From positions 6,190-70,189 of the forward strand of contig CAZXYN010000004.1 of NCBI GenBank assembly GCA_964644965.1: a DNA stretch of 64,000 nt, given 5' to 3'. A model generated the notes under the pieces. It did no database searches, was not told the origin of the DNA, and saw nothing but the letters and a program-made list of their open reading frames with translations. Positions within the stretch are counted from its first letter, which is position 1; each line of letters opens with the position of its first letter. Below are positions 3,956-50,279 of this stretch, piece by piece. Position numbers and translations under genes: made by a program. The stretch comes from an uncultured Candidatus Saccharibacteria bacterium. GTDB taxonomy: Bacteria; Patescibacteriota; Saccharimonadia; Saccharimonadales; JACDBH01.

Positions 3956-4246
3956 CTAGTAGCCTTTTGTGTAGCCTTTACCAGACTTGCTTATTCCCAT
4001 GTGCGCACAGCCGCCAGCTATACCACAATCTCCACAAATTGCAGGTGGGGTGGTAGATTCTTTTGGCTCCTCTGCGTAGTTAACGGCTGGAGTAGCGTCA
4101 GTAGGTTCATCGTGTTGTATTTCTGAATGAAAAAAATCAGGCTGTTCAGTATCCTTGCCTGAATAGGCAGGCTGATTACCGTGACCAGGACTATAGTTTG
4201 GAACTATGTCGCCTTCTGGTGTTTCTAAGAAGTTTGGATTTGTCAT
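3956..4246 (-). CDS. Hypothetical acidic protein with a C-terminal Cys cluster (96 aa)
   Basis: The ORF is preceded by a near-consensus promoter. The C-terminus reads ICGDCGIAGGCAH. Confidence 0.5.
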   Translation of the reverse strand: MTNPNFLETPEGDIVPNYSPGHGNQPAYSGKDTEQPDFFHSEIQHDEPTDATPAVNYAEEPKESTTPPAICGDCGIAGGCAHMGISKSGKGYTKGY

Positions 4247-4310: not shown

Positions 4311-4376
4311 AAAAACTTGCAAAAACCACCCCTGTAAAAGGCCAGGCCTTTTACAGATAGGTTGTTTGCAATTTTT
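4311..4376. repeat. REP-like extended palindrome (core CTGTAAAAGGCCAGGCCTTTTACAG at 4332-4356)
   Basis: The same core recurs at 49513, 50195 and 51524. The flanks AAAAACTTGCAAAAACC and GGTTGTTTGCAATTTTT are also inverted. It lies just downstream of the 969-aa gene. Confidence 0.8.
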
Positions 4377-4397
4377 GCTCGTGCCGTGATTAATCTG

Positions 4398-7307
4398 TTA
4401 GGTTGCTCGGTATACCCGCGTCCGAGTCACTCGCCAGACGCAAATACTGACGACGATTAGGGTGCTGGCAGCAAGGATATATGGAGTGAGTGAAGTACCC
4501 GTATCAGCAAGGCTACTGCTGCCTAAGACAGCTAAGCCCACTGGATCTTTAATCTGACCGGTCACGGGGTCAAGGTCAAGACTGCCGTTGTCAGTGATTA
4601 CGTAGGTCAGCCTCAGAGCTGGCTGGCCAGCGTAGGTGGTCTGAGTAATAGTGGCACCCGTGATATCAGAATAAGTGCTCTCTATAGGGTTGTACTTTCT
4701 AGCTTTGACTTCGTCTGGCTCCAGGTTGGTCATAAAAGTCAGGCTGACTTCGTTATCAGTTTCCGTGGTAGTAAAGCAGAAATCTACCAGACCAAGGGGG
4801 TAGTGATAGGCGCTGTCTTGAGTAGTAAGGCTGCTTTCCTTAGCGGTGGATGAGCAGTTAATTTCAGTGCCTGCGGGAGTTTCTAGCCGGATGGGTTTGC
4901 CGTTTTCCGAGCTTGCGAGGCTGGCGGTGTTAGGATCCTGCTCTGGGTCAGGAATAGGTATGGTTGTACCGGGTAAAGTACCAGTGTATATGGCGATATT
5001 ATTGATGGGCAGAGCAAAGATGTCGCCAATGTCGTAAAAAGCATCTTCAATGGTAGCCATGTCATTTTCAGGATAAGTAACCACGAGTGCCCGGATGGTG
5101 GTCTGCTCATCAACCGGACCGTTCACGGCGAATGGTAGGGTCAATGGGTAACTCTCTCCCGGAGAAAGGTCTGGTATGAGCATGCTGCAGTAATACCCTA
5201 CCCCCAAATGATAGGCAAAGGCGGGCATGCCCCCTAATTCTCCTGTGTAATCATAACAGGCGTAGGTTTCTCCGTCGCTATACATTCCGTTATCTTCGTC
5301 ATAGGGAACAGCCAGTTCCATACTGTCAGGGACAACTATAATAAGTTCGACGCTATCTTCCTCATAGTTAATGTCATTACTAACGTTGGTGGTCGTAAAT
5401 GTGTATCTGGCTTCCTGACCCTGTATGAGACCTGGAGGTGCTAGGGTGATGCCCAGGCCAAGGTCAACTGATTCGGGACATGTGCCGGTGGTAAATGTAG
5501 CATCACTGCCATAGCCCGTACCAAGACCATTTGAGGCATAGGCTCGGTAATGATAGGTTGTTTCACAGCCTAGCCCATTTAAGGAGACGAGCTGAATACC
5601 CTGCTCATAGCTGTCAGCATCATAATTACCCCAGGTGTAATCCGTATTCGCGCCAAACTGCACACCGGCAGATGACAACGTGCCACCTGAGTCTATAATA
5701 TCGATCTCGACAATAGCTGATTTATCAGATATTGTAACGACGCCACCGGTGACCACCTGCGGCAAACTACAGCCGTGGCCGCTATCATTGATCGTCCAGT
5801 TGTATGTATCGATAATGTATTGGCGCTGAACAGCACTAGTGCAGTAGGCTTTGCCATATGCGTCAAGTCTAACGCCGTTTTGGAGGTTTTGTTCTGACCA
5901 ACCGTCTAGAATAGCATCATACGTTTCAGAACTTATGCCAGAGTCACCGAGCATGTATGATGCATCTGTAACACTAGTCATATCCCAATCAGATATATCC
6001 TGATTGAATGAATAGGCACTCTCGAACGTTCTACTCATGCTGGTCACACTACTAACGTCCCAGCTGGAAATGTCTTGGTTAAAATCTGTTGTTTCCCTGA
6101 ACATGCTTGTTATATTAGTCACACTACTAACGTCCCAACTGGAAATGTCTTGGTTAAATGGAGAACGTTCGAACATTCCGTCCATAAGAGTCGCACTGCT
6201 GACATCCCAACCGGAAATGTCTTGGTTAAAAGCGTTGTTGCGCCTAAACATCCACCTAAATGTCGTGACATTGCTAACATCCCAATCAGAGATGTCCTGA
6301 TCAAAGACCAAGGCACTGTTAAACATATGTGCCATGCTGGTTACGCTACCGACCTCCCATTTGGAAATGTCTTGATTAAATGAATCTGCTACCTCAAACA
6401 TGGATGACATATTTGTAACAGCTGACGTGTCCCACTCGTCAAGTGGCTGGTTAAAGCTGGCAGCTCCTTGAAACATGCCAGACATATTCTTAACCTCAGA
6501 CACATTCCAATCATTAAGCGGCTGGTTGAAGCTAGTTGCATACACGAACATTTGTGACATACTCGTCACTGCCGACACGTCCCACTCGTCAAGTGGCTGG
6601 TTGAACGAATCAGCACCATCGAACATTCGGTTCATAGATGTAACTTTGCTGACATCCCAGCCGTTGAGCGAATAATTGAAGGAGTCGGCTTCTCTAAACA
6701 TAAAACCCATGCTTGTGACGTTACTAACATCCCAGTCGGAAATGTCTTGATTGAATGACCGTGCAAGCGTGAACATAGCATACAGATCAGTAACGTTACT
6801 TAGATCAGGATTATCAGAGGCGGTTAGCTGCATGTTGGCGGCTCCGAAGAATGCCTTGTGCATAGTTGTCCACTGAGTGTCACCCCATTGCTGAACCTCC
6901 AGAAGCTTGAGTTTGTCATGATCGTCGTTGAAGTAAACGCGGCGGAATGTGCCGTCTATAACCACGCTGTAGGTGCCGGGCGAGTCGTAGCTGCAAGTGT
7001 AATTACCTGTCCGGCCGGTGGCTTCAAACACACCATCGTTATTACAGTCGACACTGTAATTGTAGCCGGCACCGGTCGTCGGGATCATAAACTGGTTGTT
7101 AGCGCTGCTGCCGGCATTATCGGTCTTTACCAACATTACAAATACATCGTTACCGTGCGGGCCGTTGTAAGGACCGGAGGCGTAGGTTAGACCTCCCACC
7201 AGCGTATATAATAAAGCAGCACCAATAACCGACAAACCAAGTAATATCTTGGTACGAGATAGCCGTTTGGTTTTGGCTTTTTGTACTTTTGTATTGAACA
7301 GCTTCAT
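4398..7307 (-). CDS. BspA/DUF285-type leucine-rich-repeat surface protein with a LADTG sortase sorting signal
   Basis: It has an N-terminal signal/TM segment and about 11 repeats of the form FNQDISxWDVSxVTxMxxMF. The C-terminus is LADTG followed by a hydrophobic stretch and an RVTRTRVYRAT tail. Confidence 0.85.
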   Translation of the reverse strand: MKLFNTKVQKAKTKRLSRTKILLGLSVIGAALLYTLVGGLTYASGPYNGPHGNDVFVMLVKTDNAGSSANNQFMIPTTGAGYNYSVDCNNDGVFEATGRTGNYTCSYDSPGTYSVVIDGTFRRVYFNDDHDKLKLLEVQQWGDTQWTTMHKAFFGAANMQLTASDNPDLSNVTDLYAMFTLARSFNQDISDWDVSNVTSMGFMFREADSFNYSLNGWDVSKVTSMNRMFDGADSFNQPLDEWDVSAVTSMSQMFVYATSFNQPLNDWNVSEVKNMSGMFQGAASFNQPLDEWDTSAVTNMSSMFEVADSFNQDISKWEVGSVTSMAHMFNSALVFDQDISDWDVSNVTTFRWMFRRNNAFNQDISGWDVSSATLMDGMFERSPFNQDISSWDVSSVTNITSMFRETTDFNQDISSWDVSSVTSMSRTFESAYSFNQDISDWDMTSVTDASYMLGDSGISSETYDAILDGWSEQNLQNGVRLDAYGKAYCTSAVQRQYIIDTYNWTINDSGHGCSLPQVVTGGVVTISDKSAIVEIDIIDSGGTLSSAGVQFGANTDYTWGNYDADSYEQGIQLVSLNGLGCETTYHYRAYASNGLGTGYGSDATFTTGTCPESVDLGLGITLAPPGLIQGQEARYTFTTTNVSNDINYEEDSVELIIVVPDSMELAVPYDEDNGMYSDGETYACYDYTGELGGMPAFAYHLGVGYYCSMLIPDLSPGESYPLTLPFAVNGPVDEQTTIRALVVTYPENDMATIEDAFYDIGDIFALPINNIAIYTGTLPGTTIPIPDPEQDPNTASLASSENGKPIRLETPAGTEINCSSTAKESSLTTQDSAYHYPLGLVDFCFTTTETDNEVSLTFMTNLEPDEVKARKYNPIESTYSDITGATITQTTYAGQPALRLTYVITDNGSLDLDPVTGQIKDPVGLAVLGSSSLADTGTSLTPYILAASTLIVVSICVWRVTRTRVYRAT
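5935..6830 (-). repeat. About 11 tandem repeats of roughly 75 bp encoding the DUF285/LRR units
   Basis: The repeated DNA phrase gtcccaxxxggaaatgtcttggttaaa and the corresponding protein repeats are both visible. The boundaries are approximate. Confidence 0.7.
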
Positions 7308-14662: not shown

Positions 14663-15493
14663 ATGTTGATACGATTCGCGCAGCGACTGTTTGTTCTGAC
14701 GCTAGGAGCAGGCATTATTTACCTCACTGTCAGGTACTTTTTTCCGTTTTTTGATAACCAAGTACCACAAGCCTTAGCATTACTTGCAACTTATATCTTC
14801 ACGGCCTACCTATTCATACCAGCTGTCATTCGATTTGTCCGCTTGTTCTGGGCACCAAATCACATACCTCTGTACTGCGTCACCCCTGATGGATTTGCCA
14901 GTGATCCGATAAACATCGGCGTAATCGGCGACCGCAATCAGCTCAAAAGAGCCATGGAAAAAGCCGGCTGGTTCACAGCCGACAGGCGTACTCTACTTAC
15001 AATTCTTAGACTTGGACGTTCAATCCTACTAAGACAGCCATACCAAACAGCACCGTTTAGTAGCCTATACCTATTTGGTCGCAAACAAGATATTGGTTTC
15101 CAGAAACCGTTCAAAGATAATCCGTCATACCGCCACCATGTTAGGTTTTGGGCCTGCAACATCGAAACACCAGAAGACTTTCATGAGGATGTAAATTTCT
15201 GGCAGCGGTTTCACCGTCCTAGCGTAGACAAGGTTTCACGCCAACTCTGGGTCGGCGCCGCATCAAAAGATGTCGGGATTGTTCCTATCAAACACAACGC
15301 CCAGCTGACCCATATGATCCACCCCGACACCAATGCCGAGCGCGAGCTGATTGTCCACGACCTACGCATGAGCCACTCGGTGGCAAAGACCATTACCGAA
15401 CGCGTCCACAGTGGCCTGTCACTTCCTAACCGAGCCCTCCGAGGCGTCCTAGAAGCCGACGGCAAGGTGAAGATTTGTATATTAAAAGATTAA
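14663..15493 (+). CDS. LssY-like C-terminal-domain membrane protein
   Basis: It has two N-terminal TM segments. The stretch DPINIGVIGDRNQLKRAMEKAGWFTADRRT resembles the LssY_C family. Confidence 0.65.
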   Translation: MLIRFAQRLFVLTLGAGIIYLTVRYFFPFFDNQVPQALALLATYIFTAYLFIPAVIRFVRLFWAPNHIPLYCVTPDGFASDPINIGVIGDRNQLKRAMEKAGWFTADRRTLLTILRLGRSILLRQPYQTAPFSSLYLFGRKQDIGFQKPFKDNPSYRHHVRFWACNIETPEDFHEDVNFWQRFHRPSVDKVSRQLWVGAASKDVGIVPIKHNAQLTHMIHPDTNAERELIVHDLRMSHSVAKTITERVHSGLSLPNRALRGVLEADGKVKICILKD

Positions 15494-15500
15494 AAGCCGT

Positions 15501-15720
15501 GTTCTTTCAATAAAGAACCAAATTACTACTTCTCCTTGTTGAGAAGTAGCCAAGAAACACTGGGCCAACTTCTGACTTGATGTATCTGTTAGTGCAAACC
15601 AGGCTCGCTGCGGAACTCACCAAAAACAATCCACTGGATTATTTTTGGCTCAAACAGTCCTCGCGCCCAAGGGCACCTCGTTTGCACAACATCTACTCAG
15701 GTCAAAAGCCGATGCCCAGG
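15501..15720 (+). ncRNA. Candidate structured RNA, paralogue of the 39.1-kb RNA (the strand call is tentative)
   Basis: The 5' module GTTCTTTcaatAAAGAAC-caaatta-CTACTTCTCcttgttGAGAAGTAG is about 80% identical to 39208-39275. It is followed by an imperfect hairpin of about 160 nt (arms 15560-15599 and 15680-15720). Confidence 0.4.
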
Positions 15721-15745
15721 ATCAAATAATGTAAGCGAAATTAAT

Positions 15746-15864
15746 AAAAAAGCTCCCCATAGGGAGCAAAGCCCCGTAGTAGACTTTCGAGTTTGCCTGC
15801 CCTATTGGGCAGGCATAGTCCGCCATAAGCGGAGTCTCGAAAGCTCACTACAGGGCAAAGCAAT
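15746..15864 (-). ncRNA. Orphan sRNA of about 120 nt, bounded by a consensus promoter and an intrinsic terminator
   Basis: A 21-bp closing helix (GCCCUGUAGUGAGCUUUCGAG / CUCGAAAGUCUACUACGGGGC) encloses two hairpins. The RNA ends in GCUCCCuaugGGGAGC followed by U6. Confidence 0.55.
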
Positions 15865-15870
15865 AAGTCA

Positions 15871-15899
15871 ATTATACTACTTATGCTTAAAAATGTCAA
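15871..15899 (-). promoter_or_regulatory. Consensus promoter TTGACA-17-TATAAT
   Basis: The minus strand reads TTGACAtttttaagcataagtagTATAAT. No ORF lies downstream. Confidence 0.7.
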
Positions 15900-15991
15900 T
15901 TCAGTTTTGTAGGTCGGATTTATTCCGAGCTCAAAACTTCCTTATTCAGGAAGGAGCAGCCCGACAAAATGTATTCCATTTTGCCGGCGCG

Positions 15992-16019
15992 ATGAGGAAA
16001 CCTATCTCGGTTTCCTCAT
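15992..16019 (-). terminator. Hairpin after the 675-aa gene
   Basis: The sequence ATGAGGAAACCgagataGGTTTCCTCAT forms an 11-bp stem 3 nt after the stop. It has no U-tract. Confidence 0.4.
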
Positions 16020-16022
16020 TAC

Positions 16023-18050
16023 CTAGTAATAATACCAGCGCGAAATGCCAGCAGTATCGGTAGTATCTATGATTTTCCGCGGCTCCCCGCCCTGAATATT
16101 CATAACGTAATCTGCCGTCTCGACACCGTCGGCCACGCGATAGACAATGTAGTTCTTGTTGAGCCAGTACAGTGGCATCTTGAGCCCGCCGCGCTCGACA
16201 AGCATCTTTTCCTCACCCTGATCATTGTCTCTGGCAATCAGCACACCTTTGCCGTCTCGGTCATCAACCCATAGGCTGAATGTTTTGTCCTGATTGTCTA
16301 AGTACATGTGGTTTGTCTGTGATGCTGGTGGGCTTGTTTCGGCAGCCAGTGGCGAGCCGATTACGAACTCGTACCACTTGTCGTTGTCGCCAGCGAAGTA
16401 CAGAGTGTCGTATGAGCTTCTGATGATTGAATAGACCTCTTTGTCTAGGATTGTTTGGATATTTGAGCCATCTGGATCGCTAACATACATAGCGGCATTG
16501 ACCTCCTGAAAGACATTTGACGGTGCATAATAGACGCGGTCGTTGGCCATCATGACATCATTGAATGAGTTTGAGCCAGCCAGCTCCTTGGTGTCTGAAT
16601 GATCCTCGTTATTGAAGCTCATCAGGCGGTGGCGCTTGGGATCGGTACCGCTGGCACCAGCAGCTATCTTTACATAAATCAGCCGGCCTGATCTTGACCA
16701 ACCTACTACTTGAATCTGCTCTGATTGGTCTATGCGCACCAAATCACCGTTGTCTGTGTCTAGGATGTAGAGGGTACTGAGCAAATAGCCGCTTTGGTTG
16801 CGAGTATTTTCACGGGTGGCTACGTAAGCAGCGAAGTTTTTGCTAGGATGAGGTACTAGAGCTATATCATCACGTTCGTAGCCAGAGCCACCGACAATTC
16901 GACGTTCGTTTTTGCCATCTACGTCTACGGTGTAGACATCATATTTGCCAGATCGTTTTGAGACAAAGGTGTGTTTGCGGGCTGGCACCATTTCGATGCT
17001 CTGTGTCTCCTTGTTATTGACTGTAATATTGATGGTTTCGTTACGGTAGTCAGCAGCGGTGATGGCAACACTAACCTGAGCGCTGTCATCGAGTTCGGCT
17101 GTATCAAGAGCTAGAACAAGCTTGCCGTCTTCGTCTGAGCTGGCGTTTCCTTCGCCCGAGGTGGCTTCTGCCTTGGCAATTGGCTTGCCGCTAAAGGCAT
17201 CACGAATCAAGAATGTGTACTGCGAGCCGACTGGTGTCACCTGGTACTCGCCCAGCGGATTGCTGCCCCAGCCGACAGTAATTGTACGATCCTGTGATGC
17301 AAAGGCACGTTTTTCGATACGCAGGGTTGTCTCGCCTAGGCGAACCTTTTGGAGCCGAGCGACGCCTGCGCTATCTGTTTGAGCTGAGGCATTAGCGGCC
17401 GTAACTTTGACGTTTTTGAGTGGCTGCAAGGTGCTGCTATCTAGTACTGTCAGTTCGATGGTTGAGCGGACTTGAGCGGTGTTAAGAATAAAGTAGCGAG
17501 TCGTTGGAATCAAGGCTAGAGCTAGCATCAGCGCCGTGGCGCCACCCAAGATTCCCCAGCGACTCTTTGGGTTGCGCCAGAGTTTTCTGATAAATAGGCT
17601 TATTTCGCTCTCTGGGTTTTTTGTTTTTCCAGCTGAGTGTTTGGTAGATTGCTCGTCAGGTTCGTCAATATCTAGCTCTTCTTCAACCATGATATCGTCT
17701 ATAACTTCGTCGACTTCTGCGTCATCGGCTTCGCCTTTTACCTCTGGTGCTGGCTGCTCCTCAACTACAGGGTTCTCGGTAGACTCAATCACCGGGTCAG
17801 TTTCTATCTCTAGCGCCACGCCGGTTACTGGTTCAACTACCTCCTCTATCGGCAGTTCGGGCGCATCTGGTATTTCGGATGTTTCGGAAAGTGCAGTGTT
17901 ATTTGAAACTTCGGCTGCTTCTTCTTCGATATCATTTACGACATCGTCGCTCAAAATATCATCAGAATTGTCAAAAGATATCTGCTCATCAGCCGCCGAG
18001 ACGCCGTCTTTGGAGTCAGAAAATTTAGAAGAGTCTTTTGAACTGCTCAT
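16023..18050 (-). CDS. Membrane-anchored protein with an acidic N-terminal tail, a CarboxypepD_reg-like domain and a TolB/PD40-like beta-propeller
   Basis: The N-terminus is rich in D and E, followed by one TM segment. PD40-like blades are visible (SGKYDVYTVDVDGKNERRI, SGRLIYV...). Confidence 0.65.
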   Translation of the reverse strand: MSSSKDSSKFSDSKDGVSAADEQISFDNSDDILSDDVVNDIEEEAAEVSNNTALSETSEIPDAPELPIEEVVEPVTGVALEIETDPVIESTENPVVEEQPAPEVKGEADDAEVDEVIDDIMVEEELDIDEPDEQSTKHSAGKTKNPESEISLFIRKLWRNPKSRWGILGGATALMLALALIPTTRYFILNTAQVRSTIELTVLDSSTLQPLKNVKVTAANASAQTDSAGVARLQKVRLGETTLRIEKRAFASQDRTITVGWGSNPLGEYQVTPVGSQYTFLIRDAFSGKPIAKAEATSGEGNASSDEDGKLVLALDTAELDDSAQVSVAITAADYRNETINITVNNKETQSIEMVPARKHTFVSKRSGKYDVYTVDVDGKNERRIVGGSGYERDDIALVPHPSKNFAAYVATRENTRNQSGYLLSTLYILDTDNGDLVRIDQSEQIQVVGWSRSGRLIYVKIAAGASGTDPKRHRLMSFNNEDHSDTKELAGSNSFNDVMMANDRVYYAPSNVFQEVNAAMYVSDPDGSNIQTILDKEVYSIIRSSYDTLYFAGDNDKWYEFVIGSPLAAETSPPASQTNHMYLDNQDKTFSLWVDDRDGKGVLIARDNDQGEEKMLVERGGLKMPLYWLNKNYIVYRVADGVETADYVMNIQGGEPRKIIDTTDTAGISRWYYY

Positions 18051-27427: not shown

Positions 27428-27631
27428 TTACCTTGATACAGTGGTTTCACAAGCCGGACAGGAGATGGTTGTTGGCGTCAGAACAGCATCAACTAATTGC
27501 TTACAAAAAGGACAGGTCACGCACGGCATACGGGTTGGATCATCGGCTGCAATTCGATCATGATCGATACCACATAGTCCGTCACATTGTGATTTCTGAT
27601 GTTCGTATTGTTCGGTGGTTAGATGGCTCAT
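27428..27631 (-). CDS. 67-aa zinc-ribbon mini-protein
   Basis: It carries the motifs CDGLC, CVTCPFC and CPAC. It overlaps the upstream gene by 4 nt. Confidence 0.55.
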   Translation of the reverse strand: MSHLTTEQYEHQKSQCDGLCGIDHDRIAADDPTRMPCVTCPFCKQLVDAVLTPTTISCPACETTVSR

Positions 27632-29070
27632 TTTGATTTGCCCGTTGTCTGCTTTGATTCAAAAGCATCACAGTTTCCGCAGTACTTATTTACCCTGCTC
27701 TTATTATAAGCGTAGATGATGGACTTTGAACCACACTTACAGCTGCGCTCTTTGTCCTTAACCAATGTATCACCCGGCTTGGCGCCAACTTTTTCTGCCA
27801 GTCTCTTGCCGTCGGCGCTAAATGGATTCACGCTCTCAAGACCACAGCTACCACCACTGCAAAAACCACCACCCGGAGCCTGTCTCTCTACTTCTTGCAT
27901 CAGTGAGAATGCTTCTTCATACGCACCTTGCATTTGCAGCTGATTGACCTGGTGTAGACCCTTGGCAGTACGTTCATCAAACATCTGCTCAGCAACACCT
28001 AGGTCCTGCCTGGCTATATCAAGCAGTAGTTTTTTCACAAAATCTTCGACATGCACTGGTGCTTTTCGCTTGTCAAAACCTTCCTCTGCTAAATCCAGAA
28101 CGAAAGAAGCGACTGTGTCAGCTGTGTCAGCTAGTCCTTCCTGTCGAACTAACGCATCTGCCCTGAAATTTTCATAGTCTTTCTCATATCCGTCTGGTAC
28201 GACTTCACCCATAAAGATATTTGTGCACCATTCTTCACCTGCTACTTCATCGAGCTGACGGGCAAAGTCCATCAAATCATCATCTACAAGCAGCTGATTG
28301 CCATGAAGCTCGGTCTTGTCCATGTGAACAGTCTCGACACCACGTCGTCTGAGCGTCTCTTGGATTACCCAGTGGCTTATGTATATGCCCGGCAGGCCAA
28401 TCTGTTCCTGCAGTCTATCGCCTGTATCTTGATCAAAGCGCATATCGCGGATCATGACCTTTTCAATCTCTGGCACATAGCCGTCATAACCTCTGTGAGG
28501 CTTACCTTCGCTCATATCATATCGATAATCATTGATAGCTTTGTCAGTACATTCAGAAATTGTTCTGATACCAAACTGCGCCATGGCAAATGAGCCAATT
28601 TTGCGGATAATTCGAGGGGTCTCGTCTTCTACCCGTTCGTTCACCCGCCGTACTACTTCCTCGTGGCTACCACCAATCGGACGGAGCGCGTTCTCTGTCA
28701 TCTGACGGATAGACAAGCCATGTGAATAAAAATCACCAGTCTCCTCATCAAAATAATGCCGAGTAGCCGGGAAATATTCTGGACGCTTCTTGCGAAACCA
28801 TTCTGCTGTCAAACGGCGACAATCAAGCCGCAGACCTTCGAGCCGCTCGGAATATTCCTCGCTGTTTGCGCCAAATATATCCCGCGCTTCCACAACTCTC
28901 TCGGCAGTAGAAAGCGCATCCAGAGCAAGGGGCAGCTCCGCATCATGGCCCGATTCATGTAACTGTTCACGCCTGCGCACAAGCTGCCAAGCTTCACTAC
29001 GAACTTGCTCGCGTTCTGCTGCAAGCTCAGGGATTGTATCAACAGAGATATAATTGGTGGCTTCGGACAC
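27628..29070 (-). CDS. Hypothetical 480-aa protein with a C-terminal Cys4 zinc ribbon; first gene behind the riboswitch-like leader
   Basis: The start codon is GTG. The C-terminus reads CKCGSKS...YCGNCDAF. I recognise no family. Confidence 0.7.
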   Translation of the reverse strand: MSEATNYISVDTIPELAAEREQVRSEAWQLVRRREQLHESGHDAELPLALDALSTAERVVEARDIFGANSEEYSERLEGLRLDCRRLTAEWFRKKRPEYFPATRHYFDEETGDFYSHGLSIRQMTENALRPIGGSHEEVVRRVNERVEDETPRIIRKIGSFAMAQFGIRTISECTDKAINDYRYDMSEGKPHRGYDGYVPEIEKVMIRDMRFDQDTGDRLQEQIGLPGIYISHWVIQETLRRRGVETVHMDKTELHGNQLLVDDDLMDFARQLDEVAGEEWCTNIFMGEVVPDGYEKDYENFRADALVRQEGLADTADTVASFVLDLAEEGFDKRKAPVHVEDFVKKLLLDIARQDLGVAEQMFDERTAKGLHQVNQLQMQGAYEEAFSLMQEVERQAPGGGFCSGGSCGLESVNPFSADGKRLAEKVGAKPGDTLVKDKERSCKCGSKSIIYAYNKSRVNKYCGNCDAFESKQTTGKSK

Positions 29071-29103: not shown

Positions 29104-29270
29104 AGTCCATCCCAGCCTTACGAGTTGCCGTGATGGTTTTTGCTCCTGCTCGGGAGACCCCGGTAGTAGAACAAGTTCACTACGGGGCTTGCTTTAATGC
29201 TGTGTCGGGCTATAACCGTAGCGGCACTGCGGAGGAATTTCACCTCACTTCCAGCTTGTTTGTTAATACT
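29104..29270 (-). promoter_or_regulatory. Cobalamin-riboswitch-like aptamer
   Basis: The minus strand contains AAGCUGGAAGUGAGGUGAAAUUCCUCCGCAGUGCCGCUACGGU, which matches the conserved core GGGAAxxxGGUGxxAAxUCCxxxGCxGxCCCGCxACUGU. It also contains CCCGAGCAGGAGC, which resembles the B12 box CCCGAxGCCAGGAGAC. This is a by-eye match only. Confidence 0.5.
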
Positions 29271-31062: not shown

Positions 31063-34000
31063 TTATTCATCCTTGTGGATGCCGTATGGCGAGTGGTCTT
31101 TTGATGATTTGTGACGCTTTTTGAGCACGAACAATGTTACGGTAGAGCCGATTAACAATAGTAGGCTTGCCCACCAGATTGGTCGATTGATGACTGTTTT
31201 TACAATTCTAGTTACTGCCGAACCAAGCCCACGATTGTCACTGGCTGCTTCGGCCTGAGGTTTCGACTCCTCTTTTGTCTCTTCTATTGGAGCCGTTATT
31301 GGAAGTGGATCCGGTTCTACCGTGCCATCGCCCTCAGGCAGCGGTGGTGCTGGCGTGCTACGAACACCAAACAGCCCAAACACTGAGAAGCCCGATGTTT
31401 GGCAGCTGACAATCCTGGCTGTGGCATTCACTTGGCAACCTGTTAATTGCTGCCAAGCTGTGCCGTCGTGTCTAAATATTGCTAGGCTTGATACGTCAAA
31501 ACCAGCAGCATCGTCTGAGCTGTAGCTGATCGATACTGTCAGAACACCGTTGAAACTAGTAGTCAAGACATTACCTGCCTTTATGGCTTTAAGGTCATAA
31601 ATATGGCTACCGACAAGTACTCTGCCAGTTGGCTGGCCAATGCCGCTGAGGGCTGGAGCCGGAGACAGCTGCTTGACCTGAATATCGGTCGCTTCGTCTA
31701 CCGCGCCAGCTGGGACTTGGACCTGCAAGGCGGCCGAGCCGCTATTCAGACTTGCCTGACCGCCACCCACACCAACCGATGCGTGAGCCTGGTTCATGAT
31801 AGCCGCGTTACCAGAACATGCCGTTGTCGTGAAGCTGCCAATGCCGCTGATGGCTTCGTTGTCAAGCTGGTCAATGCTGGCGACTCTAAACTGGAATGTG
31901 CTACACGGTGGCAAATTCTGTAGCAGAACGCTGTGTGTTGTTACCCGTGGGCTGGTGTTACTCTCTACCGTTGTCTCGCTGAACGAACTCCCTACCCCGT
32001 ACAGAACCCGTGACGAAGCTATCTCATTGGTCTTCCAGGTGATAACTGCACCGGCGCTACCTGGTGTTGCCGAGATCATAGTTATAACTGGCGGCGTATT
32101 GTCGATGGATACCGATGAGCTGACCCAGGCGGATTTGTTACCAAGATTATCAACCGCCCGAACCCGGAAGTACCAGGTGCCAAAATCTAGCTCAGCTACA
32201 TGCGTAAATGTTGGATCGTTGGTTGTCCCAGCAGTAACACCACTGGAGAAATTGCTAACACTAGACCACTGGATTTCGTAAGCTGGGTCGTCCAGCCCTA
32301 CTCCTGCGTCATTACTAGCCGTCCATGTCCAGGTTGGGGTTGAGTCCTTGGTTGGAGTGTTAGTCTCTAGATCGGCTGGCAAGCTTGGCGCAGTGGCGTC
32401 AATCTCGACCGTTCCGTAGGCAGACCAGGCCGATGCATTGCCAGCATCATCTTCTGCATTTACCCGGAAGTACCAGGTGCCGTCAGACAGGTTGCTCGAA
32501 TGAGTAAAGCTTTCGCTGTCATGAGTCTGAGTAGTGACACCAGCTATAAAGTTGCTGTCCTGCGACCAGGCAATGTTGTACGGCTCAGGTCCAAAACCAA
32601 AACCAGAGTCAGAACTCGGTGTCCAAGTCCAGGTTGGGGTTCTGTCGCTGGTTGGAGTCGGAGTAGTACTTGGTGTACCTGGCGCTGATGGCGCATCGGT
32701 GTCGACGTAGACAGCACCGTTGCCAGACCAGCCAGACTGGTTGCCAACATCGTCAACCGCCCGAACCCGGAAGTACCAGTTACCCTCTGGTAGACTGCTG
32801 CCGTGGGTGAAGTCAGCACTGTTAGAGGTGTTGCTGCTAATTCCAGATATGAAATCTCCGTCCTGCGACCACTGCACTTCGTAAGCTGGATTATCTAGTC
32901 CGACGCCGCTGTCGGTGCTAGCCGTCCAAGTCCAGGTTGGGGTGTCGTCGTTGGTTGATGCACTTCCAGTGCTTGGTGTGCCCGGTACTGTCGGAGCGCC
33001 AGAATCTACGATTACTTCGCCGCTGGCACTCCAGGCAGAGGTGTTGTCTATATCATCGCTAGCTCGGACTCGGAAATACCAAGTGCCGTCAGACAGGTTA
33101 GAAACGTGAGTAAAATTATTGCTGTTGGTCGTGCCAGAACTTATGCCGCTAGCGAAGCTGCTGCTCTGTGACCATTGGACACTGTAGGTAGGGTCGCCTA
33201 ATCCAACGCCGCTGTCGGTGCTAGCCGTCCAAGTCCAGGTAGGAGTCTGGTCGTTGGTTGGCGAGGTTGTGCTAGGCAGACCTGGCACATCCGGAGCAGT
33301 GGCATCAATCACCACATTGACTGTCGTAGAAAAGGCAGATTGATTCGCAACCACATCCTCAGCGCGGATTCTGACATACCAAGTGCCGTCGTCAAGATTA
33401 TCATTGTGAGTAAAGCTGTTGGTGTTTGCAGAGTCAGAGAATACTCCCGACTCAAATGCATCATCTTCTGACCACTCGATGTAGTAGGCAGGATTAGCCA
33501 GGCCTGAGCCGCTGTCAGTACTTGCCGTCCATGTCCAGGTTGGGGATTGATCACTAGTTGGACTAGGTGTAGTTACTGATCCAGGTACACTTGGAGCTGT
33601 TGTGTCTATTAGCACACTGCCGATTGAGGAGTAGAGCGAAAATGTGTTTGTCTCATCCTCTGCCCTAAGTCGGAAGTACCAGATGCCGTCGGCTAGACTA
33701 CCTGGCTGAGTGAAGGCATTTGTAGCGCTGGTGTCGGTCGAAACACCACTCAGGAAGCTGTTGTCCTGCGACCATTCGACATGATACGGCGGGCTAGCGA
33801 GCCCTGCATCTGCTGTGCTGGCTGTCCAGTTCCAGGTCGGCGTAGTGTCAGTTGTCGGTGTAGTGGTTGTAGGCGAGCCTGGAATTGTTGGGCCGGCGGT
33901 AGATACGAGTACACTGCCTGTAGCTGCATAGGCAGAGGTGTTGTTTAGACCGTCTACTGCCCTAACCCGGAAGTACCAGGTGCCGTCGGCCAGGTCGTCA

Positions 34001-37000
34001 GTGTGCGTAAAACCATTGGTGTTTACGGTGTCAGAGAATACTCCGCTGCCAAAGGTGTTGTCTAGTGACCACTGCAAGTCATAGGCAGGATTACGCAAAC
34101 CCACGCCGTTATCGGTACTAGCAACCCATGCCCAGGTTGGGGTGTTGTCGTTGGTTGGAGTCGGCGTACTCGGTGTGCCTGGCACACTCGGCGCAGTGTC
34201 GTCTACTTCTACACTGGCAATTGACGAGTTAGCTGATTCGTTATTCACTTGGTCAATCGCCCTAACTCGAATATACCAAGTGCCGTCGGCCAGACTTGCA
34301 CCGTGGGTGTAGCTATTAGTTGTACTGGTTGATGATTGGACACCAGACGATAGGTCGCTGACCGTCGACCACTCGACAATATATGAGTTTGTCGCTAGCC
34401 CCGAACCGGCTCCGTCAGAGCTGGCAGTCCAAGTCCAGGTTGGGGTATCGTCGTTAGTTGGTGTGGTGGTCGATGGTGTACCCGGAGTCGTTGGTGCAGT
34501 GGCATCGACAAACACACTGCCAGTACCACTGTAGGCAGAAATATTACTGACATCATCCACTGCCCGAACTCGGAAATACCAGGTGCCGTCTGCCAACGGA
34601 TCTGGATGGGTAAAGCTATTATTAGTAATCGTGTCGGTGGTAACGCCAGACAAGAAATCAATATCCTCAGACCACTCGATCATATATGGATCATCAGCAA
34701 GTCCAACACCAGCGTCAGTACTGGCTGTCCAGGTCCAGGTTGGCGTATTGTCCGCCGTTGGTGTGGTGGTCGATGGTGTACCCGGAGTCGTTGGTGGATT
34801 GATATCTACAATCTTGCTGCCTTGATTTGACCAGGCTGATTGATTGCCGACTGCATCCACCGCCGCAATTCGAACATACCAGGTTCCATCAATCAGCTCA
34901 TCGCTATGGGTGAAGCTATTGGTAGTGCTGGTATCTGTTGAAACGCCACTTACGAAAGTATTGTCCTCTGACCACTCAACTACGTAAGCATTGGTTGCTA
35001 GCCCAACTCCACTGTCTGTACTGGCTGTCCAGGTCCAGGTTGGCGTGTCGTCGTTCACGGGGTCAGAAGTGGTTGGGTCGCCTGGAACAGTTGGCGCCGT
35101 GGTGTCGATATTTACCTCGCCATTAGCAGAGTAGCTAGAAGTGTTGTCGGCAGCATCGGTAGCTCGAACTCGGAAATACCATACATCCTCTGCAAGCGGC
35201 ACCGAGTGCGTAAAGCTATTGGTACTAGTCGTGTCGGTGCCATCAACTGAGCTAAATGTCTCATCAGTTGACCACTCAATTTCATAAGGGGTTGCCGCTA
35301 ATCCAACACCAGTGTCATCTGGAACTGGCCAGGTCCAGGTTGGGGTAGTGTCATTGGTAGGCGTAGTGGTAGATGGGGCATCAGGAGTATCTGGGGCGAC
35401 CGTATCAATTGTGACAGAGCCAGCCGTAGAGTAGGCCGACTGATTCGATAGCGTATCGCGAGCATTTATACGAATATACCAGGTGCCGTCTGCCAGTGGT
35501 CCAGGATGTGTAAATGTAGTCGAAGCTACAGAGGTACTTCCACCAATACTAGAGAAGTTAGAGGTATTCGACCATTGGACAAAATACGGGGTTGGCGTCA
35601 GCCCGACACCAGTATCAATGCTTGGATCCCAGTTCCAGGTAGGCGTGTTGTCGTTGGTTGGGTTGGTAGAATACGGCTGACCTGGCAGTGACGGCGGCGT
35701 GGTGTCAATCAACACACTGCCGTTTGCCGACCAAGCCGATAGGTTTCCCAGCGCATCGGCTGCCCGTACCCTAAAGTACCACGTATTGTCCGCCAAAGTT
35801 GTTGGATGCGGATAGGTGTTAGTTGCCGAAGTATCAGACGAAACACCGCTAGAGAAGCTTGAATCAAGCGACCACTGCACAGTGTATGGCACCGCAGCCA
35901 GGCCAGCACCGCTGTCTGTTGGTGGTGACCAGCTCCAGGTCGGCTGATTAAAGTTAGTAGGCGATGACGTGTATGGTGCCAGAGGTGTTGTCGGACCGGT
36001 GGTGTCAATCAGATGGACTGCACTAACCTGCCAGTTTGAGTTATTTCCTAACGTATCAGCAGCCCGGACACGGAAGTACCAGTTGCCGTCGTTCAGGTTA
36101 CTGCCATGTGTGAAGCTTGTATTATCGGTGGTTGCCGAGCTGACACCACTGAGAAAAGTGTTGTCTATTGACCACTGCAACGTATAAGTTGGGGAGCCGA
36201 GGCCTGCGCCGACATCACTACTCGCACTCCAGGTCCAGGTTGGTCTTTTCTCTGTCTGCGAACTTGCCGTCGATGGCACGCCAGGATCTGTTGGCGGTGT
36301 TACGTCCAGCTGGAATGCAACCGCGCCACCGTTAGCGGTTGCGTAACTAGACTCGCGTGGCGTGCTATAGTTATCAATTCCCTTTACCCGCCAATAGTAG
36401 CTGGCCGTAGCCAGCGACATGCCGTCTGACCCTGCTATGTAAGTATCATCAGAAACGTTCTGACCAACCGTGTAAGTACGAGTCCCTTGATCACCAATAT
36501 CAGAAATATAATCTACTTCTGGTGATGAAAAATCACTATTATCATCAATCTGTATCTGGAAACGCATATCATCAGCGTTGTTTTGATCAAACAATTCAAA
36601 CGACAGCGTTGGCGTGCTGTCACCGACAAAACCGCCGCCGACAAAGCTAGCCGTACCGAGGTTGGTTGGTGTCTCTGGAGGGACATTTATTGTCCAGTTG
36701 ATGTTGTTACCAGAGTCAGTGATGTTGGTGTCTGTAATATCGACCGGGCTGGCATTGACGTTGTTACTGTCCATGACATCCAGGTAGCTAATGGTCTCTG
36801 TCCCAGATGGATTAATGTTCCAGTGCTGTCCATCAACACTTGAGCGGAGTGACAATAGCTCTCCAACCGCACCGTTAAGTGTCAGTTGATTTGTAACCAC
36901 GGTTGTTGAGCCTGCGGCGAATTCAAGTGTGGCTGCACTAGCAACCTGCTTTGTTAGGTTATAAAAAGTTGTCGAACTCTTAATCCGCTGATCACCGCCA

Positions 37001-38925: not shown

Positions 38926-39064
38926 GTGTCCTCCAAGTCAAACGCTTATGACTATTGTACTCCTTTTGGGTGCCTATTCATATCTGTTAACTAGGGCTTT
39001 TTTGCTTGGTTTTGAGCGGTTTTACACAGCCTGATTTTTGTCATAAAGCTAACAGGGGTGAATA

Positions 39065-39093
39065 TTGACTACCCTTGCCAAGTGTGATATAAT
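39065..39093 (+). promoter_or_regulatory. Consensus promoter TTGACT-17-TATAAT, divergent from the giant gene
   Basis: The sequence reads TTGACTacccttgccaagtgtgaTATAAT. No ORF lies downstream. Confidence 0.65.
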
Positions 39094-39099
39094 AAGAGG

Positions 39100-39512
39100 A
39101 TAGGCCAAATACAAAAACCCACACCTTCCTAGTTAAAATAGGTTTCTTCCAATGAAGAACCAAATTACTTCTTGCAACCATCCGCTGCATAGCGGAAGCA
39201 AGTTATTATTCTTTAAATAAAGAATCAAATTACTACTTTTCTTGCCGGAAGAAAAGTAGCCAAAAGACCTCGGGCCAAAATGTTTTCTTAACTTGGTTTG
39301 TTGTTAATAAACACAATACGCTGGGGCGGACTCCCTACGGTCGGCCCACAAAGTTTAATACTAGAGTTTGTGGACAGCGCCTTGCTCTCTATTAGTGTTT
39401 TTAACTAACAACCAAATTAGGAAACATTTTGAAGCCCACTTAAGACCATGGACACCCGCCTAGGCGGGTGGATTGTTTAAGTCGCCACGGCCTTGGCCGT
39501 GGCTTCTATTTT
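39100..39512 (+). ncRNA. Candidate structured RNA of about 410 nt (unknown class)
   Basis: It begins at the predicted TSS after the promoter. It contains two tandem copies of the TTCTTY..RAAGAA-YCAAATTA-hairpin module (39143-39205 and 39208-39275). These are followed by a hairpin of about 33 bp and 160 nt (39277-39314 / 39395-39430). It ends in two GC-rich perfect hairpins, CACCCGCCtaGGCGGGTG and GCCACGGCCttGGCCGTGGC, and then UUCUAUUUU. Confidence 0.5.
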
Positions 39513-39920
39513 GGTTCCGGCTTTTCAAAATCCGATTTGTCGGTCTGGCAGGGTGAAGTCGCCTTTTGCGAGGACTATTTGCCACTGATTACGGGCTGCC
39601 AGTGGCAGTCCAGTTATAACAATATCGCCCCGATTAGGGCGTAGCCATGGCTCTCGGGTCTGGGCATCAAATTGGCTCCTGATTGGACTTTGTCAACACT
39701 ACAACTAATAGCCGAGGACTGTTTGACGGAGTTGCTTCCCAAATAGCAGGCAACTCCTAGTTCCGCAGGCTGTTGTCTTTCTTGACAGAAGTATAGTCAA
39801 GAAGTGCTGCGGCCCGGTGGTTTTGCGCCACTTTTGACACCAAAAGCTGGCGGCCTTTGGTTCTTTGGCCGGAGAAAGAACATAAAATATATGGCTCTAT
39901 ACCGAAAGAAGCCGAATCTA

Positions 39921-40640
39921 CTATTCGCCGACAATAATCAAAATATCAGCATCAGGGAACGTCTCGCCTGCCGGCAAACGCGAGATTTCTGCATTCAAAT
40001 CTTTTGCAATTTCCTGGACTTTTTCGTCATAACGATCGGTTACGTTCACAATTGTGACACCCTTGTAATCAGACCTTGTAGATTTGTCGCGGCTAACAAC
40101 ATCGATATCTTTGATGCGCTTCAGCAAGTCCTCGACAGATTCAACCGGCTCAGTGCCTGAACTACCTTGGCGCACAAAAACTTTGGCGTCTGGTGGCGTA
40201 TAACTGCCAGAATGCACAATTCGCTGCTCACTTGGCCGATACAGCACAGCCTTGCCTGCTTTGTAATACAGCAGTACTTTGTCGCCGTTTTTGGCTTGTT
40301 CGAGGAACGGCTGCTCGACTTTTTCTTTGTCTATTACGCTCAACACAGCAGGGTTTCCATCGCCACTAATACTAAGCTCTTTGTTGACCTGAACCACGAT
40401 TTTGTCATTGGTGAGCTCTGCCGAACCTGAGCGAATTAACAGAGATAATCCTCCGATTATTATCATAATTACTACCAGCCCAATCAGCGCTCGCAACTTG
40501 TGTGATTTTGCCCACGAAGAAGCCAGCTGGAGAGTTGCCTTTGTATACACCCAAATACTCGGCTTGATTTCTGACGCCTGTGGTTCAACCTTTTTTTCAG
40601 CTGGTTTCGTGGTCTTCTTAGTTGCCTTTTTTGTAGCCAT
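39921..40640 (-). CDS. Membrane-anchored LytR_C-domain-like protein
   Basis: It has a Lys-rich N-terminus and one TM segment. The C-terminal stretch VFVRQGSSGTEPVE...VTIVNVTDRYDEKVQEIAKDL...ADILIIVG resembles LytR_C. Confidence 0.55.
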   Translation of the reverse strand: MATKKATKKTTKPAEKKVEPQASEIKPSIWVYTKATLQLASSWAKSHKLRALIGLVVIMIIIGGLSLLIRSGSAELTNDKIVVQVNKELSISGDGNPAVLSVIDKEKVEQPFLEQAKNGDKVLLYYKAGKAVLYRPSEQRIVHSGSYTPPDAKVFVRQGSSGTEPVESVEDLLKRIKDIDVVSRDKSTRSDYKGVTIVNVTDRYDEKVQEIAKDLNAEISRLPAGETFPDADILIIVGE

Positions 40641-49504: not shown

Positions 49505-50245
49505 AAATTTTCAAAGGCCAGGCCTTTTACAGATGAGAAAATTACAAGTTTGCCAATTCGTGCTTGAGTTCGCCCAACATATTTCTGTTTTCTTCGTAGT
49601 CAGATACAAACTCCAGGTAAGCCTCTCGGCTGGCGTGTTGCTGTATCACCCTTTTGGTTTGAAGCCATTCTGGTTCGCTCGCATTGCGTATATGACTAAT
49701 GCTTGAGTATGGAAATCTTTTCCAGCTACGAGGATTAAGGTGTATATACCTTGAAACGTGCAATAAATAGGCATCCCTACTGATAATCGCTGCTTTGAAT
49801 CTATTCTCAAACAAAGGACCCGTACGCTCGTATTTGTGGTTGAAGTACGTCGAATAAGCCACCATGACGCTTTTCATTAACTGAGACAAAGTTCCCTGCG
49901 TTGCTTGATAAAACAACAGATGAAAATGATTATCCATCAAGCAATAAGTCAGAAGCTCCAGATCACCTCTGTAATGTGGATAGGTATAGTTTTGTTTATT
50001 GGTTACGGGTTTGATCGACAGGTGTCTGGACAGAAGGTATAGGAAATAATCCTTATCTGCAGCTTCGCGGAAGATAAGTCCCTTTGCTGCACCCCTGGCA
50101 TAGACATGATAATAGCTGTCCCCGGTGTCAAAACGTACTGTATTCCTCGACGGCATAGGCAAATTATAGAGAAATCGACAAAACTTGTAAATCACCTATC
50201 TGTAAAAGGCCAGGCCTTTTACAGATAGGGTTTTTGCAAGTTTTT
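49505..50245 (-). mobile_element. RAYT unit: REP-associated tyrosine transposase gene bracketed by REP palindromes
   Basis: The REP core AAAGGCCAGGCCTTT lies at 49513-49527, immediately 3' of the gene. The full 35-bp palindrome CCTATCTGTAAAAGGCCAGGCCTTTTACAGATAGG lies at 50195-50229, 5' of the gene. Confidence 0.8.
49542..50156 (-). CDS. REP-associated tyrosine transposase (RAYT; IS200/Y1-transposase-like)
   Basis: The likely start is the ATG at 50156 (MPSRNTVRF...). The HUH motif is LMDNHFHLLF, followed by TGPLFENRFKAAIISRDAYLLHVSRYIHLNP, which carries the catalytic Tyr. Confidence 0.85.
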   Translation of the reverse strand: MPSRNTVRFDTGDSYYHVYARGAAKGLIFREAADKDYFLYLLSRHLSIKPVTNKQNYTYPHYRGDLELLTYCLMDNHFHLLFYQATQGTLSQLMKSVMVAYSTYFNHKYERTGPLFENRFKAAIISRDAYLLHVSRYIHLNPRSWKRFPYSSISHIRNASEPEWLQTKRVIQQHASREAYLEFVSDYEENRNMLGELKHELANL

Positions 50246-50279
50246 ATATGGTGTATAAAAGCTCCTGCGAAGCGAGCTC

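Follow-up and report, generated by a model that had tools for sequence, protein, structure and literature searches.

We examined a 64-kb window of genomic DNA from an uncultured “Ca. Saccharibacteria” bacterium (the whole 64,000-nt stretch of contig CAZXYN010000004.1 analyzed here), in which modular hairpin elements of about 230 nt lie at the ends of genes. Saccharibacteria are tiny epibiotic bacteria with genomes of ~1 Mb and little spare DNA. To our knowledge, their non-coding RNAs and the ways in which they end transcription are almost wholly unexplored, and the literature on intergenic repeats or structured RNAs of Saccharibacteria and Patescibacteria yielded nothing relevant. At 15.5 kb, the gene upstream of the element (14663-15493) encodes a protein with an LssY_C domain, and the stem of a small hairpin (hairpin 1) begins 8 nt after its stop codon at 15493, as a preliminary description of this DNA had stated. 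A single-stranded linker, a second small hairpin (hairpin 2), another linker (CCAAGAAACA), and a long hairpin follow; the two small hairpins form what we call the module. Folding of 15501-15719 with RNAfold returned hairpin 1, hairpin 2, and the long hairpin (-78.3 kcal/mol, z = -6.1), and the small internal hairpins quoted earlier for the long hairpin (15560-15719) were recovered as well. No + strand promoter upstream of this copy was found in a consensus scan, again in agreement with the preliminary description.

That description had paired this locus with a second one 24 kb away that carries a related 5' module, and both were found where they had been placed. The two modules (15501-15565 and 39208-39275) are 79% identical (55 identical of 70 aligned columns) against the ~80% claimed. 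The sequences of the two long hairpins are essentially unrelated, as had been said: they are 53% identical in an optimal global alignment, compared with 50 +/- 2% in a shuffle control that was run on the comparison with a copy at 39.8 kb. The hairpins are similar in length (160 and 166 nt).

The count of two copies proved too low. Using a covariance model (CM) of the module built from six copies, we found four modules in the window, at 15498-15566 (+), 39144-39199 (+), 39205-39276 (+), and 39884-39811 (-), and a third full element. A pattern, AAAGAAYCAAATTACTACTT, allowing up to 3 mismatches, matches at 15512, 39154, and 39219, all on the + strand, and in 0 of 100 shuffles. The second and third elements are housed in a 1-kb gap between a gene pair encoding proteins of 2,229 and 239 amino acids and a gene encoding a 2,620-amino-acid protein. 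The third element (39884 to 39660, - strand) begins with its module 37 nt past the stop codon (39921) of the 239-amino-acid gene (39921-40640, - strand) and is a true sibling of the 15.5 kb copy: both have a closing stem C(U/C)GGGC ... GAUGCCCAG and an apical motif GGAACU-(variable hairpin)-UCAAACAGUCCUCG.

A conserved module and replaceable long hairpins

The long hairpins are thus partly constrained, in that the closing stem (CUGGGC...GAUGCCCAG) and the apical motif are conserved. At least two types of apex occur in the window, type A in the 15.5 kb and 39.8 kb copies and type B in the 39.2 kb copy. The type A apex at 15.5 kb consists of GGAACU (15612-15617), an inner hairpin, and then UCAAACAGUCC (15650-15660). 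The type B apex core, GGACUCCCUACRGUCGGCCC ... CCUUGCUCUCUAUU, is common to the 39.2 kb copy (fold z = -8.4 with RNAfold) and to a copy from a related locus, L048 (related loci and contigs are cited by our L numbers), with 88% identity over 40 nt. In L005, a change of GG to GA at the start of the apical motif is matched by CC to UC at its end, so that pairing is kept. L005 also carries a stand-alone apical motif outside the element, as the window does next to its third element.

To measure conservation of pairing in the module, 13 module hits were aligned to the CM and pairs were counted, with shuffles and slid registers as controls. Of the module cells, 97.7% are paired, compared with 85% in shuffles, and half of the pairs (8 of 16) vary at both positions. 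Covariation scored 0.336 in the real alignment; shuffles gave 0.143 (0 of 500 scored as high), and slid registers gave no more than 0.118. Hairpin 1 hardly varies in sequence, yet one of its pairs covaries, U-A alternating with C-G, 8 to 4; a change of its closing pair from G-C to A-U among copies can also be read from the sequences. The ten full copies available, from at least six assemblies, share an abstract shape of two small hairpins and one long hairpin, the apex of which is often branched. Fold z ranges from -7 to -14 in nine of them and is about -2 to -2.6 in the 39.8 kb copy.

The long hairpins cannot be aligned meaningfully with each other (~53 to 56% identity, compared with 50% for shuffles), and we therefore used folds of single copies, abstract shapes, and a mismatch test of arm against arm. 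The earlier view that this is the architecture of a functional RNA family with diverged helices is borne out by the covariation of the module, by the shape of the ten copies, and by retention at orthologous loci.

We scanned species-representative genomes with the pattern TTCTTN{3,6}AAGAANCAAATTACT. It matched 58 stretches among 185,579 genomes, 4 of which are genuine copies, all in “Ca. Saccharibacteria” metagenome-assembled genomes (MAGs; three in JALHOM01 and one in CAZXJN01). A scan of metagenomes gave 7 stretches with 1 genuine copy. Viral contigs gave nothing convincing among 10 stretches matching the module, which were not inspected individually; of 103 stretches matching the apex motif, we looked at the 45 whose inner region was most stable, none of which had the inner hairpin, and we read them as chance matches. 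Such exact patterns would miss diverged modules like those of L080, L085, and L192. As far as these searches reach, the family is restricted to a clade of Saccharibacteria. Copy number is low: the pattern hit three times in one MAG and once in another.

The module is accompanied by a long hairpin in every case except the upstream units of tandem pairs. In the JALHOM01 MAG, the modules of different copies are near-identical while the long hairpins can differ completely (L005 compared with L040 and L050); the only near-identical full copies are L040 and L050. Copies reshuffle module, stem, and apex by recombination or nested insertion. The neighboring genes are unrelated to each other and encode LssY-like protein, the 239-amino-acid hypothetical protein, a histidine kinase, ribosomal protein S9, and a Zincin_1 protein.

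Orthologous positions were found through the orthologues of the LssY-like protein and of the 239-amino-acid protein. Downstream of the LssY-like gene, L085 (75% protein identity) has a module and a long hairpin with a type A apex directly after the stop codon. L080 (76% protein identity) has the same arrangement, with outer stems homologous to those of L085 and a different apex. Degenerate versions are present at this locus in L078, L084, and L087, and no element was found there in L082, L083, and L086. At the second locus, L192 (59% identity in the 239-amino-acid protein) has a type A element beginning at the stop codon. The whole element block is absent from L191, where homology to the window breaks off at 39932 and picks up again at 39094, with 22 nt in place of 837 nt. 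The element therefore occupies orthologous positions across a flanking-protein identity of 59 to 76%.

Logan contigs from two metagenome runs are identical to the window, and one of them (L002) ends at 15718, where the long hairpin ends. L040, L062, L084, and L086 likewise end in or near elements or just past the LssY-like gene, which is consistent with disruption of assembly by long inverted repeats or repeated modules. In L050, half of a long hairpin of the L005 type (4340-4420) lies beside that locus' own element.

Strand asymmetry and gene context

The strand opposite to the one in which the elements were first described folds to a lower energy in all eight type A/C copies, by 6 to 23 kcal/mol (opposite/first-described strand, in kcal/mol: -101/-78, -86/-70, -92/-78, -103/-84, -86/-68, -97.5/-80, -81/-75, and -95/-81). 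Because base composition inflates such differences, we also ran a test that involves no energy model, in which each 5' arm was aligned to its reverse-complemented 3' arm and the mismatches were classified. Transition mismatches in the outer stems of seven independent type A/C copies, counted on the first-described strand, comprise 31 A.C and 3 G.T (binomial p = 8e-7). With a bias of 31:3 between A.C and G.U, it is the opposite strand that is selected to fold, and selection for structure on the strand of the upstream gene was not found by either the mismatches or the fold energies. The 15.5 kb copy has 4 A.C and 1 G.T on the + strand. It shares the direction of the bias with the 39.8 kb copy although the two lie on opposite strands of the chromosome, and the bias is therefore not an effect of the replication strand. 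Type B copies lean the same way, though weakly (6 versus 2), and an 85-nt hairpin adjoining the 15.5 kb copy (15772-15860) has 3 A.C versus 1 G.T on the + strand. The asymmetry could reflect RNA or, less likely, a single-stranded DNA intermediate.

Read 5' to 3' on the opposite strand, the element consists of the long hairpin, a U-rich linker, hairpin 2, UAAUUUGGUUCUUU, and hairpin 1, with the apical motif as GAGGACUGUUUGA-(hairpin)-AGUUCC. What was described as a 5' module is in this orientation the 3' end of the element. The linker between hairpins 1 and 2 belongs to the U-rich tract that follows hairpin 2, the tail reported by the scan being AATTTGGTTC, and the second half of the UAAUUUGGUUCUUU tract is paired into hairpin 1. 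A consensus scan scored hairpin 2 with its U-rich tail as terminator-like on the opposite strand at 15550-15525, 39260-39232, L080 10900-10875, and L085 3387-3361; here, a stem of 5 bp or more that includes G-C pairs runs into a U-rich tract. The preliminary description had held that a generic terminator spread over unrelated contexts would speak against an RNA family. The module is indeed terminator-like, on the other strand, and the contexts are unrelated, but it is not generic, as it was found in this lineage only and, upstream units of tandem pairs aside, always together with a long hairpin.

In most copies, the module lies 0 to 40 nt from the stop codon or the terminator of a co-oriented gene. 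In 7 of 8 informative type A/C copies, the long-hairpin side is faced by a promoter pointing to the element (12/12 in the window, L080, and L085; 11/12, promoter-like, at 39065-39093; 10/12 in L005, directly before the element on the functional strand) or by a convergent gene (L048 and L192). At both loci of the window, the element is located between the 3' end of a gene and a promoter aimed at that end, with its terminator-like end next to the gene (Table 1). The 12/12 sigma-70-type promoter near the 15.5 kb copy is found at the syntenic site in L080, L085, L078, and L087, whether the element is intact or not. The stretch of L191 that is homologous to the promoter region at 39065-39093 lies ~22 nt from the gene end and holds a match, TTGAAA-17-TATAAT, read by eye.

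Two further features accompany the promoter near the 15.5 kb copy. Together with a small hairpin (UUUGCUCCCUAUGGGGCAAA), the 12/12 promoter is conserved in five genomes, antisense to the LssY-like gene, and 15871-15899 with the hairpin at 15746-15767 may represent a tiny small RNA (sRNA) or an independent antisense promoter. The site of the 85-nt hairpin is uninterrupted in L080, L078, and L085, and no second copy of this hairpin was found in the related DNA examined.

Table 1. Features at the two element loci of the window; for parts of the element, the strand is the one proposed to be functional
Feature	Position	Strand	Remarks
Hairpin 1	15501-15518	-	GUUCUUU-CAAU-AAAGAAC on +; CM hit 84.5 bits; last hairpin on the proposed functional strand
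Single-stranded linker	15519-15525	-	CAAAUUA on +, UAAUUUG on -; invariant alignment columns
Hairpin 2	15526-15549	-	Structure kept, sequence free; 7/10 pairs change on both sides; terminator-like on -
Long hairpin, type A	15560-15719	-	Closing stem CUGGGC/GCCCAG; -101 kcal/mol (-) vs -78 (+)
Small GC hairpin GCUCCCUAUGGGGAGC, then U6	15746-15767	-	Terminator-like in the window; homologous sequence in L078, L080, L085
85-nt hairpin insertion	15772-15860	-	5-bp target duplication CAAAG (15767-15771, 15856-15860); outside the family, in the same - strand transcription unit
Sigma-70-type promoter TTGACA-17-TATAAT, 12/12	15871-15899	-	Aimed at long hairpin, module, and LssY stop codon
Promoter-like site TTGACT-17-TGnTATAAT, 11/12	39065-39093	+	Aimed at the 3' end of the 239-amino-acid gene; flank conserved in L191
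Degenerate upstream module	39144-39199	-	Tandem with 39205-39276; longer hairpin 2; CM 28.9 bits, E = 1.4e-4; pattern hit with 2 mismatches
Module, 39.2 kb copy	39205-39276	-	Hairpin 1 39208-39225, hairpin 2 39233-39259; CM 84.7 bits
Long hairpin, type B	39272-39437		~100-nt apex core; folds -78 and -73 kcal/mol; mismatches 2 A.C vs 1 G.T
GC-rich hairpin with U-rich tail	39484-39513	+	Terminator-like; between second and third elements
Stand-alone copy of apical motif	39571-39611	+	GGACU-(hairpin)-GCAAAUAGUCC on -; just outside third element
Long hairpin of third element, type A	39660-39817	+	Apex GGAACU...UCAAACAGUCC, ~39764 to 39716 on -; -70 kcal/mol as first read, -86 opposite
Module of third element	39811-39884	+	Hairpin 1 39881 to 39860, hairpin 2 39853 to 39826; CM 27.2 bits, E = 4e-4

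Possible functions and known systems

We favor, at a probability of roughly 40%, the view that these elements are cis-acting, orientation-specific barriers to convergent transcription, formed by a lineage-specific structured RNA of the opposite strand. RNA polymerase would near a gene from its 3' side, having started at an outward promoter (15899-15871; 39065-39093) or in a convergent gene; it would transcribe the long hairpin and stop at the module, and antisense transcription would be kept out of the gene. The blocking of convergent transcription would then be what selection maintains. At 15.5 kb, RNA 3' ends would be expected in UAAUUUGGUU (15525-15516).

Several points weigh against such a barrier. 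An element of 230 nt in which the apical motif and the sequence of hairpin 1 are conserved goes far beyond the needs of a terminator, and these features and the 160-nt hairpin are left unexplained. The U-tract is interrupted (UAAUUUGG), which makes for a weak terminator by E. coli rules, and the proposed transcription and termination rest on consensus scans. A canonical hairpin with U6 (15767-15746) stands between the 12/12 promoter and the long hairpin and may halt most transcripts first. The 39.8 kb copy lacks a promoter of its own and is preceded by the terminator-like hairpin 39484-39513; the strand bias of type B is weak (6 versus 2), with the 39.2 kb copy in sense orientation behind the 39065-39093 site; and L050 and L005 have co-oriented genes downstream. 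A strand-specific tolerance of G.T would also fit a single-stranded DNA intermediate. Since the apex, hairpin 1, and the 160-nt length are unexplained and a U6 hairpin lies upstream, a trans-acting non-coding RNA and a selfish repeat stay serious rivals.

The first of these, a family of trans-acting non-coding RNA genes of ~230 to 370 nt on the opposite strand, seems unlikely on balance. Its long hairpin would be a protein-binding platform and its module a terminator, perhaps with a chaperone-binding site (the U-rich single strand between the two hairpins), and the position at gene ends would be incidental. The strand evidence agrees with this proposal as well as with a barrier. In its favor are the 12/12 promoters upstream of the element in the window, L080, and L085, the 10/12 promoter directly upstream in L005, the low copy number (three pattern hits in one MAG assembly), and retention at orthologous loci over 59 to 76% protein identity. 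The apical motif GGAACU-(hairpin)-UCAAACAGUCC is kept while stems are replaced, and L005 shows the compensatory change there. But the promoter is conserved where the element is degenerate or absent (L078, L087, and L191) and is thus not “for” the element; a terminator-like hairpin separates promoter and long hairpin in the window and in L078; and the L048 and 39.8 kb copies have no promoter. The element is missing from the orthologous loci of close relatives (L078 and L191), so it is dispensable, and stems of 40 to 70 bp are unusual among bacterial trans-acting RNAs.

A selfish or mobile hairpin repeat of the MITE, REPIN, BOX, or ERIC kind, which would be maintained by way of a strand-specific step on single-stranded DNA (carried out, for instance, by a Y1 (HUH) transposase) and whose RNA effects would be by-products, we consider rather improbable. 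Copies are dispersed beside unrelated genes, and they are mosaic: the 15.5 kb module is almost identical to that of L048 while their long hairpins differ, L062 combines L050-type stems with an L005-type apex, and L080 and L085 have common outer stems and different apices. A tandem module in L050 is absent from its orthologue L062, half-copies exist (L050 at ~4030-4075), and the 837-nt block is absent from L191. The adjoining 85-nt hairpin is an insertion with a 5-bp duplication, and contigs break at or near elements in several assemblies. The window also encodes a RAYT-like Y1 transposase (49542-50195); such enzymes work on a single strand of hairpin DNA, which could likewise give a G.T versus A.C bias. 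However, the copies within a genome are not near-identical except for L040 and L050, and each stem is unique, which is the opposite of MITEs or REPINs with conserved ends. We found no terminal inverted repeat for the main element, and at the junctions compared with L191 no target-site duplication was seen for module plus long hairpin. The Y1 transposase gene is flanked by palindromic repeats of its own that are different, and the copy number is low. Moreover, retention at two orthologous loci over a large divergence, with compensated stems, implies purifying selection on structure.

The preliminary description had suggested a + strand RNA derived from the 3' untranslated region (3'-UTR) of the LssY-like gene. 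Such an RNA, whether a processed sRNA or a 3' hairpin shielding the mRNA from exonucleases, is improbable. Because the module lies 0 to 12 nt past the stop codon in the 15.5 kb copy, L080, L085, and L192, the transcripts of these genes must enter it. No canonical + strand terminator separates the LssY-like gene from the element, sense terminator-like hairpins follow the element in L192 (by eye) and at 39641-39626, and the + strand still folds well (-78 kcal/mol, z = -6). A + strand 3'-UTR RNA is not supported, in view of the 31:3 ratio of mismatches, the lower energy of the other strand in 8 of 8 copies, the unrelated neighbors, and the terminator-like module of the opposite strand. In addition, the L048 module sits 4 nt after a canonical terminator, and the 39.2 kb copy is downstream of no co-oriented gene. 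Like 3'-UTR-derived small RNAs, the element comes directly after a stop codon and has no promoter of its own on that strand; unlike them, it favors the other strand, and copies stand after a complete terminator or without an upstream co-oriented gene.

The lambda nut site has the layout boxA, spacer, hairpin. A boxA-like Nus-factor antitermination signal on the first-described strand, which would allow read-through of a structured untranslated region as in rRNA leaders and CRISPR arrays, is the least credible reading. The candidate stretch of the module is GUUCUUUCAAU, in which GUUCUUU equals the first seven bases of the consensus GYTCTTTAANA (PMC5725501) and is followed by a spacer and a hairpin. 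Compared by eye with this gammaproteobacterial consensus, GUUCUUUCAAUA agrees at 8 of 10 specified positions, or at 10 of 10 if one C is skipped; 9 of 12 copies keep the (A/G)UG ahead of hairpin 1, and boxA elements protect long untranslated transcripts from Rho termination (PMC7665894). Against this, the motif is base-paired in hairpin 1, and in 4 of 12 copies a C replaces the U at its seventh base along with a matching change in the pairing partner, so that selection acts on pairing and not on a boxA sequence; the AANA half (the 3' half) is not conserved (L080, L005, and L085), and the strand bias favors the other strand. No rRNA was found in the window or the related loci that could supply an rRNA-leader boxA of this lineage for comparison.

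Comparison with Rfam 15 at gathering thresholds returned for the whole window only an AdoCbl-II riboswitch away from the element. When both strands of 15400-16050 and 38900-39950 were searched permissively, only weak hits at chance level appeared, thirteen related loci had no match, and no tRNA or tmRNA was found in the window. Several specific identities were tried and rejected. A 6S RNA is not indicated, as there is no Rfam 6S hit even at E <= 10 and the continuous stem with its branched apex has no central bubble. For a retron, omega-RNA, bridge-RNA, or group II intron, there is neither a reverse transcriptase, TnpB/IscB, or recombinase gene beside any copy nor an Rfam hit. The idea of arms copied from phage, as in an RNAi- or spacer-like system, found no blastn match among 50,697 phage records, and arms copied from elsewhere in the genome found no second match to any arm in ~200 kb of related DNA. 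The mini-open reading frame AUG UUC UUU CAA UAA (MFFQ*) over hairpin 1 is seen in several copies, has no ribosome-binding site, and is absent or of another length in L005, the 39.8 kb copy, 39209, and L078. The arms share no sequence beyond the 5- to 6-bp closing stem and near-identical copies are few, which speaks against a MITE.

The BOX, RUP, ERIC/IRU, and Correia families comprise tens to hundreds of copies that are near-identical and whose arms are conserved. As is generally known of pneumococcal BOX and RUP, enterobacterial ERIC/IRU, and Neisseria Correia elements, the element is intergenic at gene ends, has swappable modules, forms a long RNA hairpin with possible terminator activity, and is restricted to a lineage. 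Unlike these families, it has a low copy number, arms that are unique to each copy, and a nearly fixed orientation to the adjacent gene, and it conserves only a closing stem, an apex motif, and a 55-nt module. With REP and REPIN sequences and their RAYT, it shares hairpin formation, an extragenic position at gene 3' ends, and a RAYT-like gene in the window, the REP enzyme recognizing one strand; REPs are 20 to 40 nt long with conserved sequence, in contrast to 230 nt with free stem sequence. Membership in a REP/REPIN-RAYT system was rejected, as the palindromes flanking the Y1 gene (D11/D12) are unrelated to the module or the long hairpins. Intrinsic terminators, including bidirectional ones, are resembled by hairpin 2 and the U-rich tract of the opposite strand, which fit the consensus and lie between convergent units. 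The element differs from them in that its U-tract is interrupted, is paired into a sequence-conserved hairpin, and is preceded by a 160-nt hairpin with a conserved apex, and in that one module sequence recurs at several loci and genomes. By location, modularity, and hairpin RNA, the element may be regarded by analogy as a variant of the modular structured intergenic repeats (BOX, ERIC, Correia, and REP/BIME) that stands outside MITEs, REPINs, and Rfam.

Other features of the window and significance

The RAYT-like Y1 gene (49542-50195, - strand) scores 36 bits with Pfam Y1_Tnp and 37.8 bits with NCBIfam REP_Tyr_transpos, below the cut-off of 80, and HFH and YIHLNP motifs are visible in its translation. 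A palindrome, CUGUAAAAGGCC(A/U)GGCCUUUUACAG, flanks it on both sides (49513-50249), and more copies are found at 4313-4381 and 51509-51577. Together, gene and palindromes resemble a REP/REPIN-RAYT system, here in a member of the Saccharibacteria. After the CarboxypepD_reg gene, a stretch of 58 nt (15949-16006; GGAGCAGCCCGACAAAAUG...CAUUUUGCCGGCGCGAUGAG) is 95% identical, in inverted orientation, to L082 10892-10949, where the LssY-like protein is 72% identical to that of the window; it is also present in L080, L083, and L087 and appears to be another conserved structured or repeated element. The AdoCbl-II (cobalamin) riboswitch aptamer (29192-29268, - strand) scores 39.1 bits against a gathering threshold of 36.5 and lies upstream of a 480-amino-acid gene (27628-29070) without a Pfam match.

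The window encodes giant surface-type proteins at 31063-38925 and 40661-47350 (- strand) and at 4398-7307. The 2,620-amino-acid protein has Laminin_G_3 and Big_13 domains and an internal repeat period of 300 nt, the 2,229-amino-acid protein has Peptidase_S74 and YadA_head domains, and a 969-amino-acid DUF285 protein has 75-nt repeats. In the JALHOM01 MAG (L005 4600-5600, - strand), an NYN-domain (RNase-like) gene is found between two copies of UUUUUCAUCAGUUAUCCUUCGCUGGCCAGCGAAAGCCGG, followed by direct repeats of the ACUCAUA type (iteron-like).

In practical terms, the coincidence of elements with contig breaks in several assemblies is of note for assembly work, and simply counting A.C versus G.U mismatches can set right a strand that was assigned by eye. 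Biologically, an element of 230 nt fills intergenic space at several loci of this lineage, shows compensatory change on one strand, and has no Rfam counterpart. It is conceivable, if doubtful, that it represents an undescribed modular RNA class of Saccharibacteria or of the candidate phyla radiation, composed of a hairpin with an apical protein-binding motif and a two-hairpin 3' module, which would act either as a fixed-orientation barrier at gene ends or as a protein-binding non-coding RNA family that spreads and reshuffles like a mobile element. If a trans-acting RNA or a mobile hairpin is the true explanation, the element would add a new family to a phylum whose members are difficult to cultivate. 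If instead the directional barrier is real, it would show a minimal genome with strong outward promoters guarding its genes from antisense transcription.

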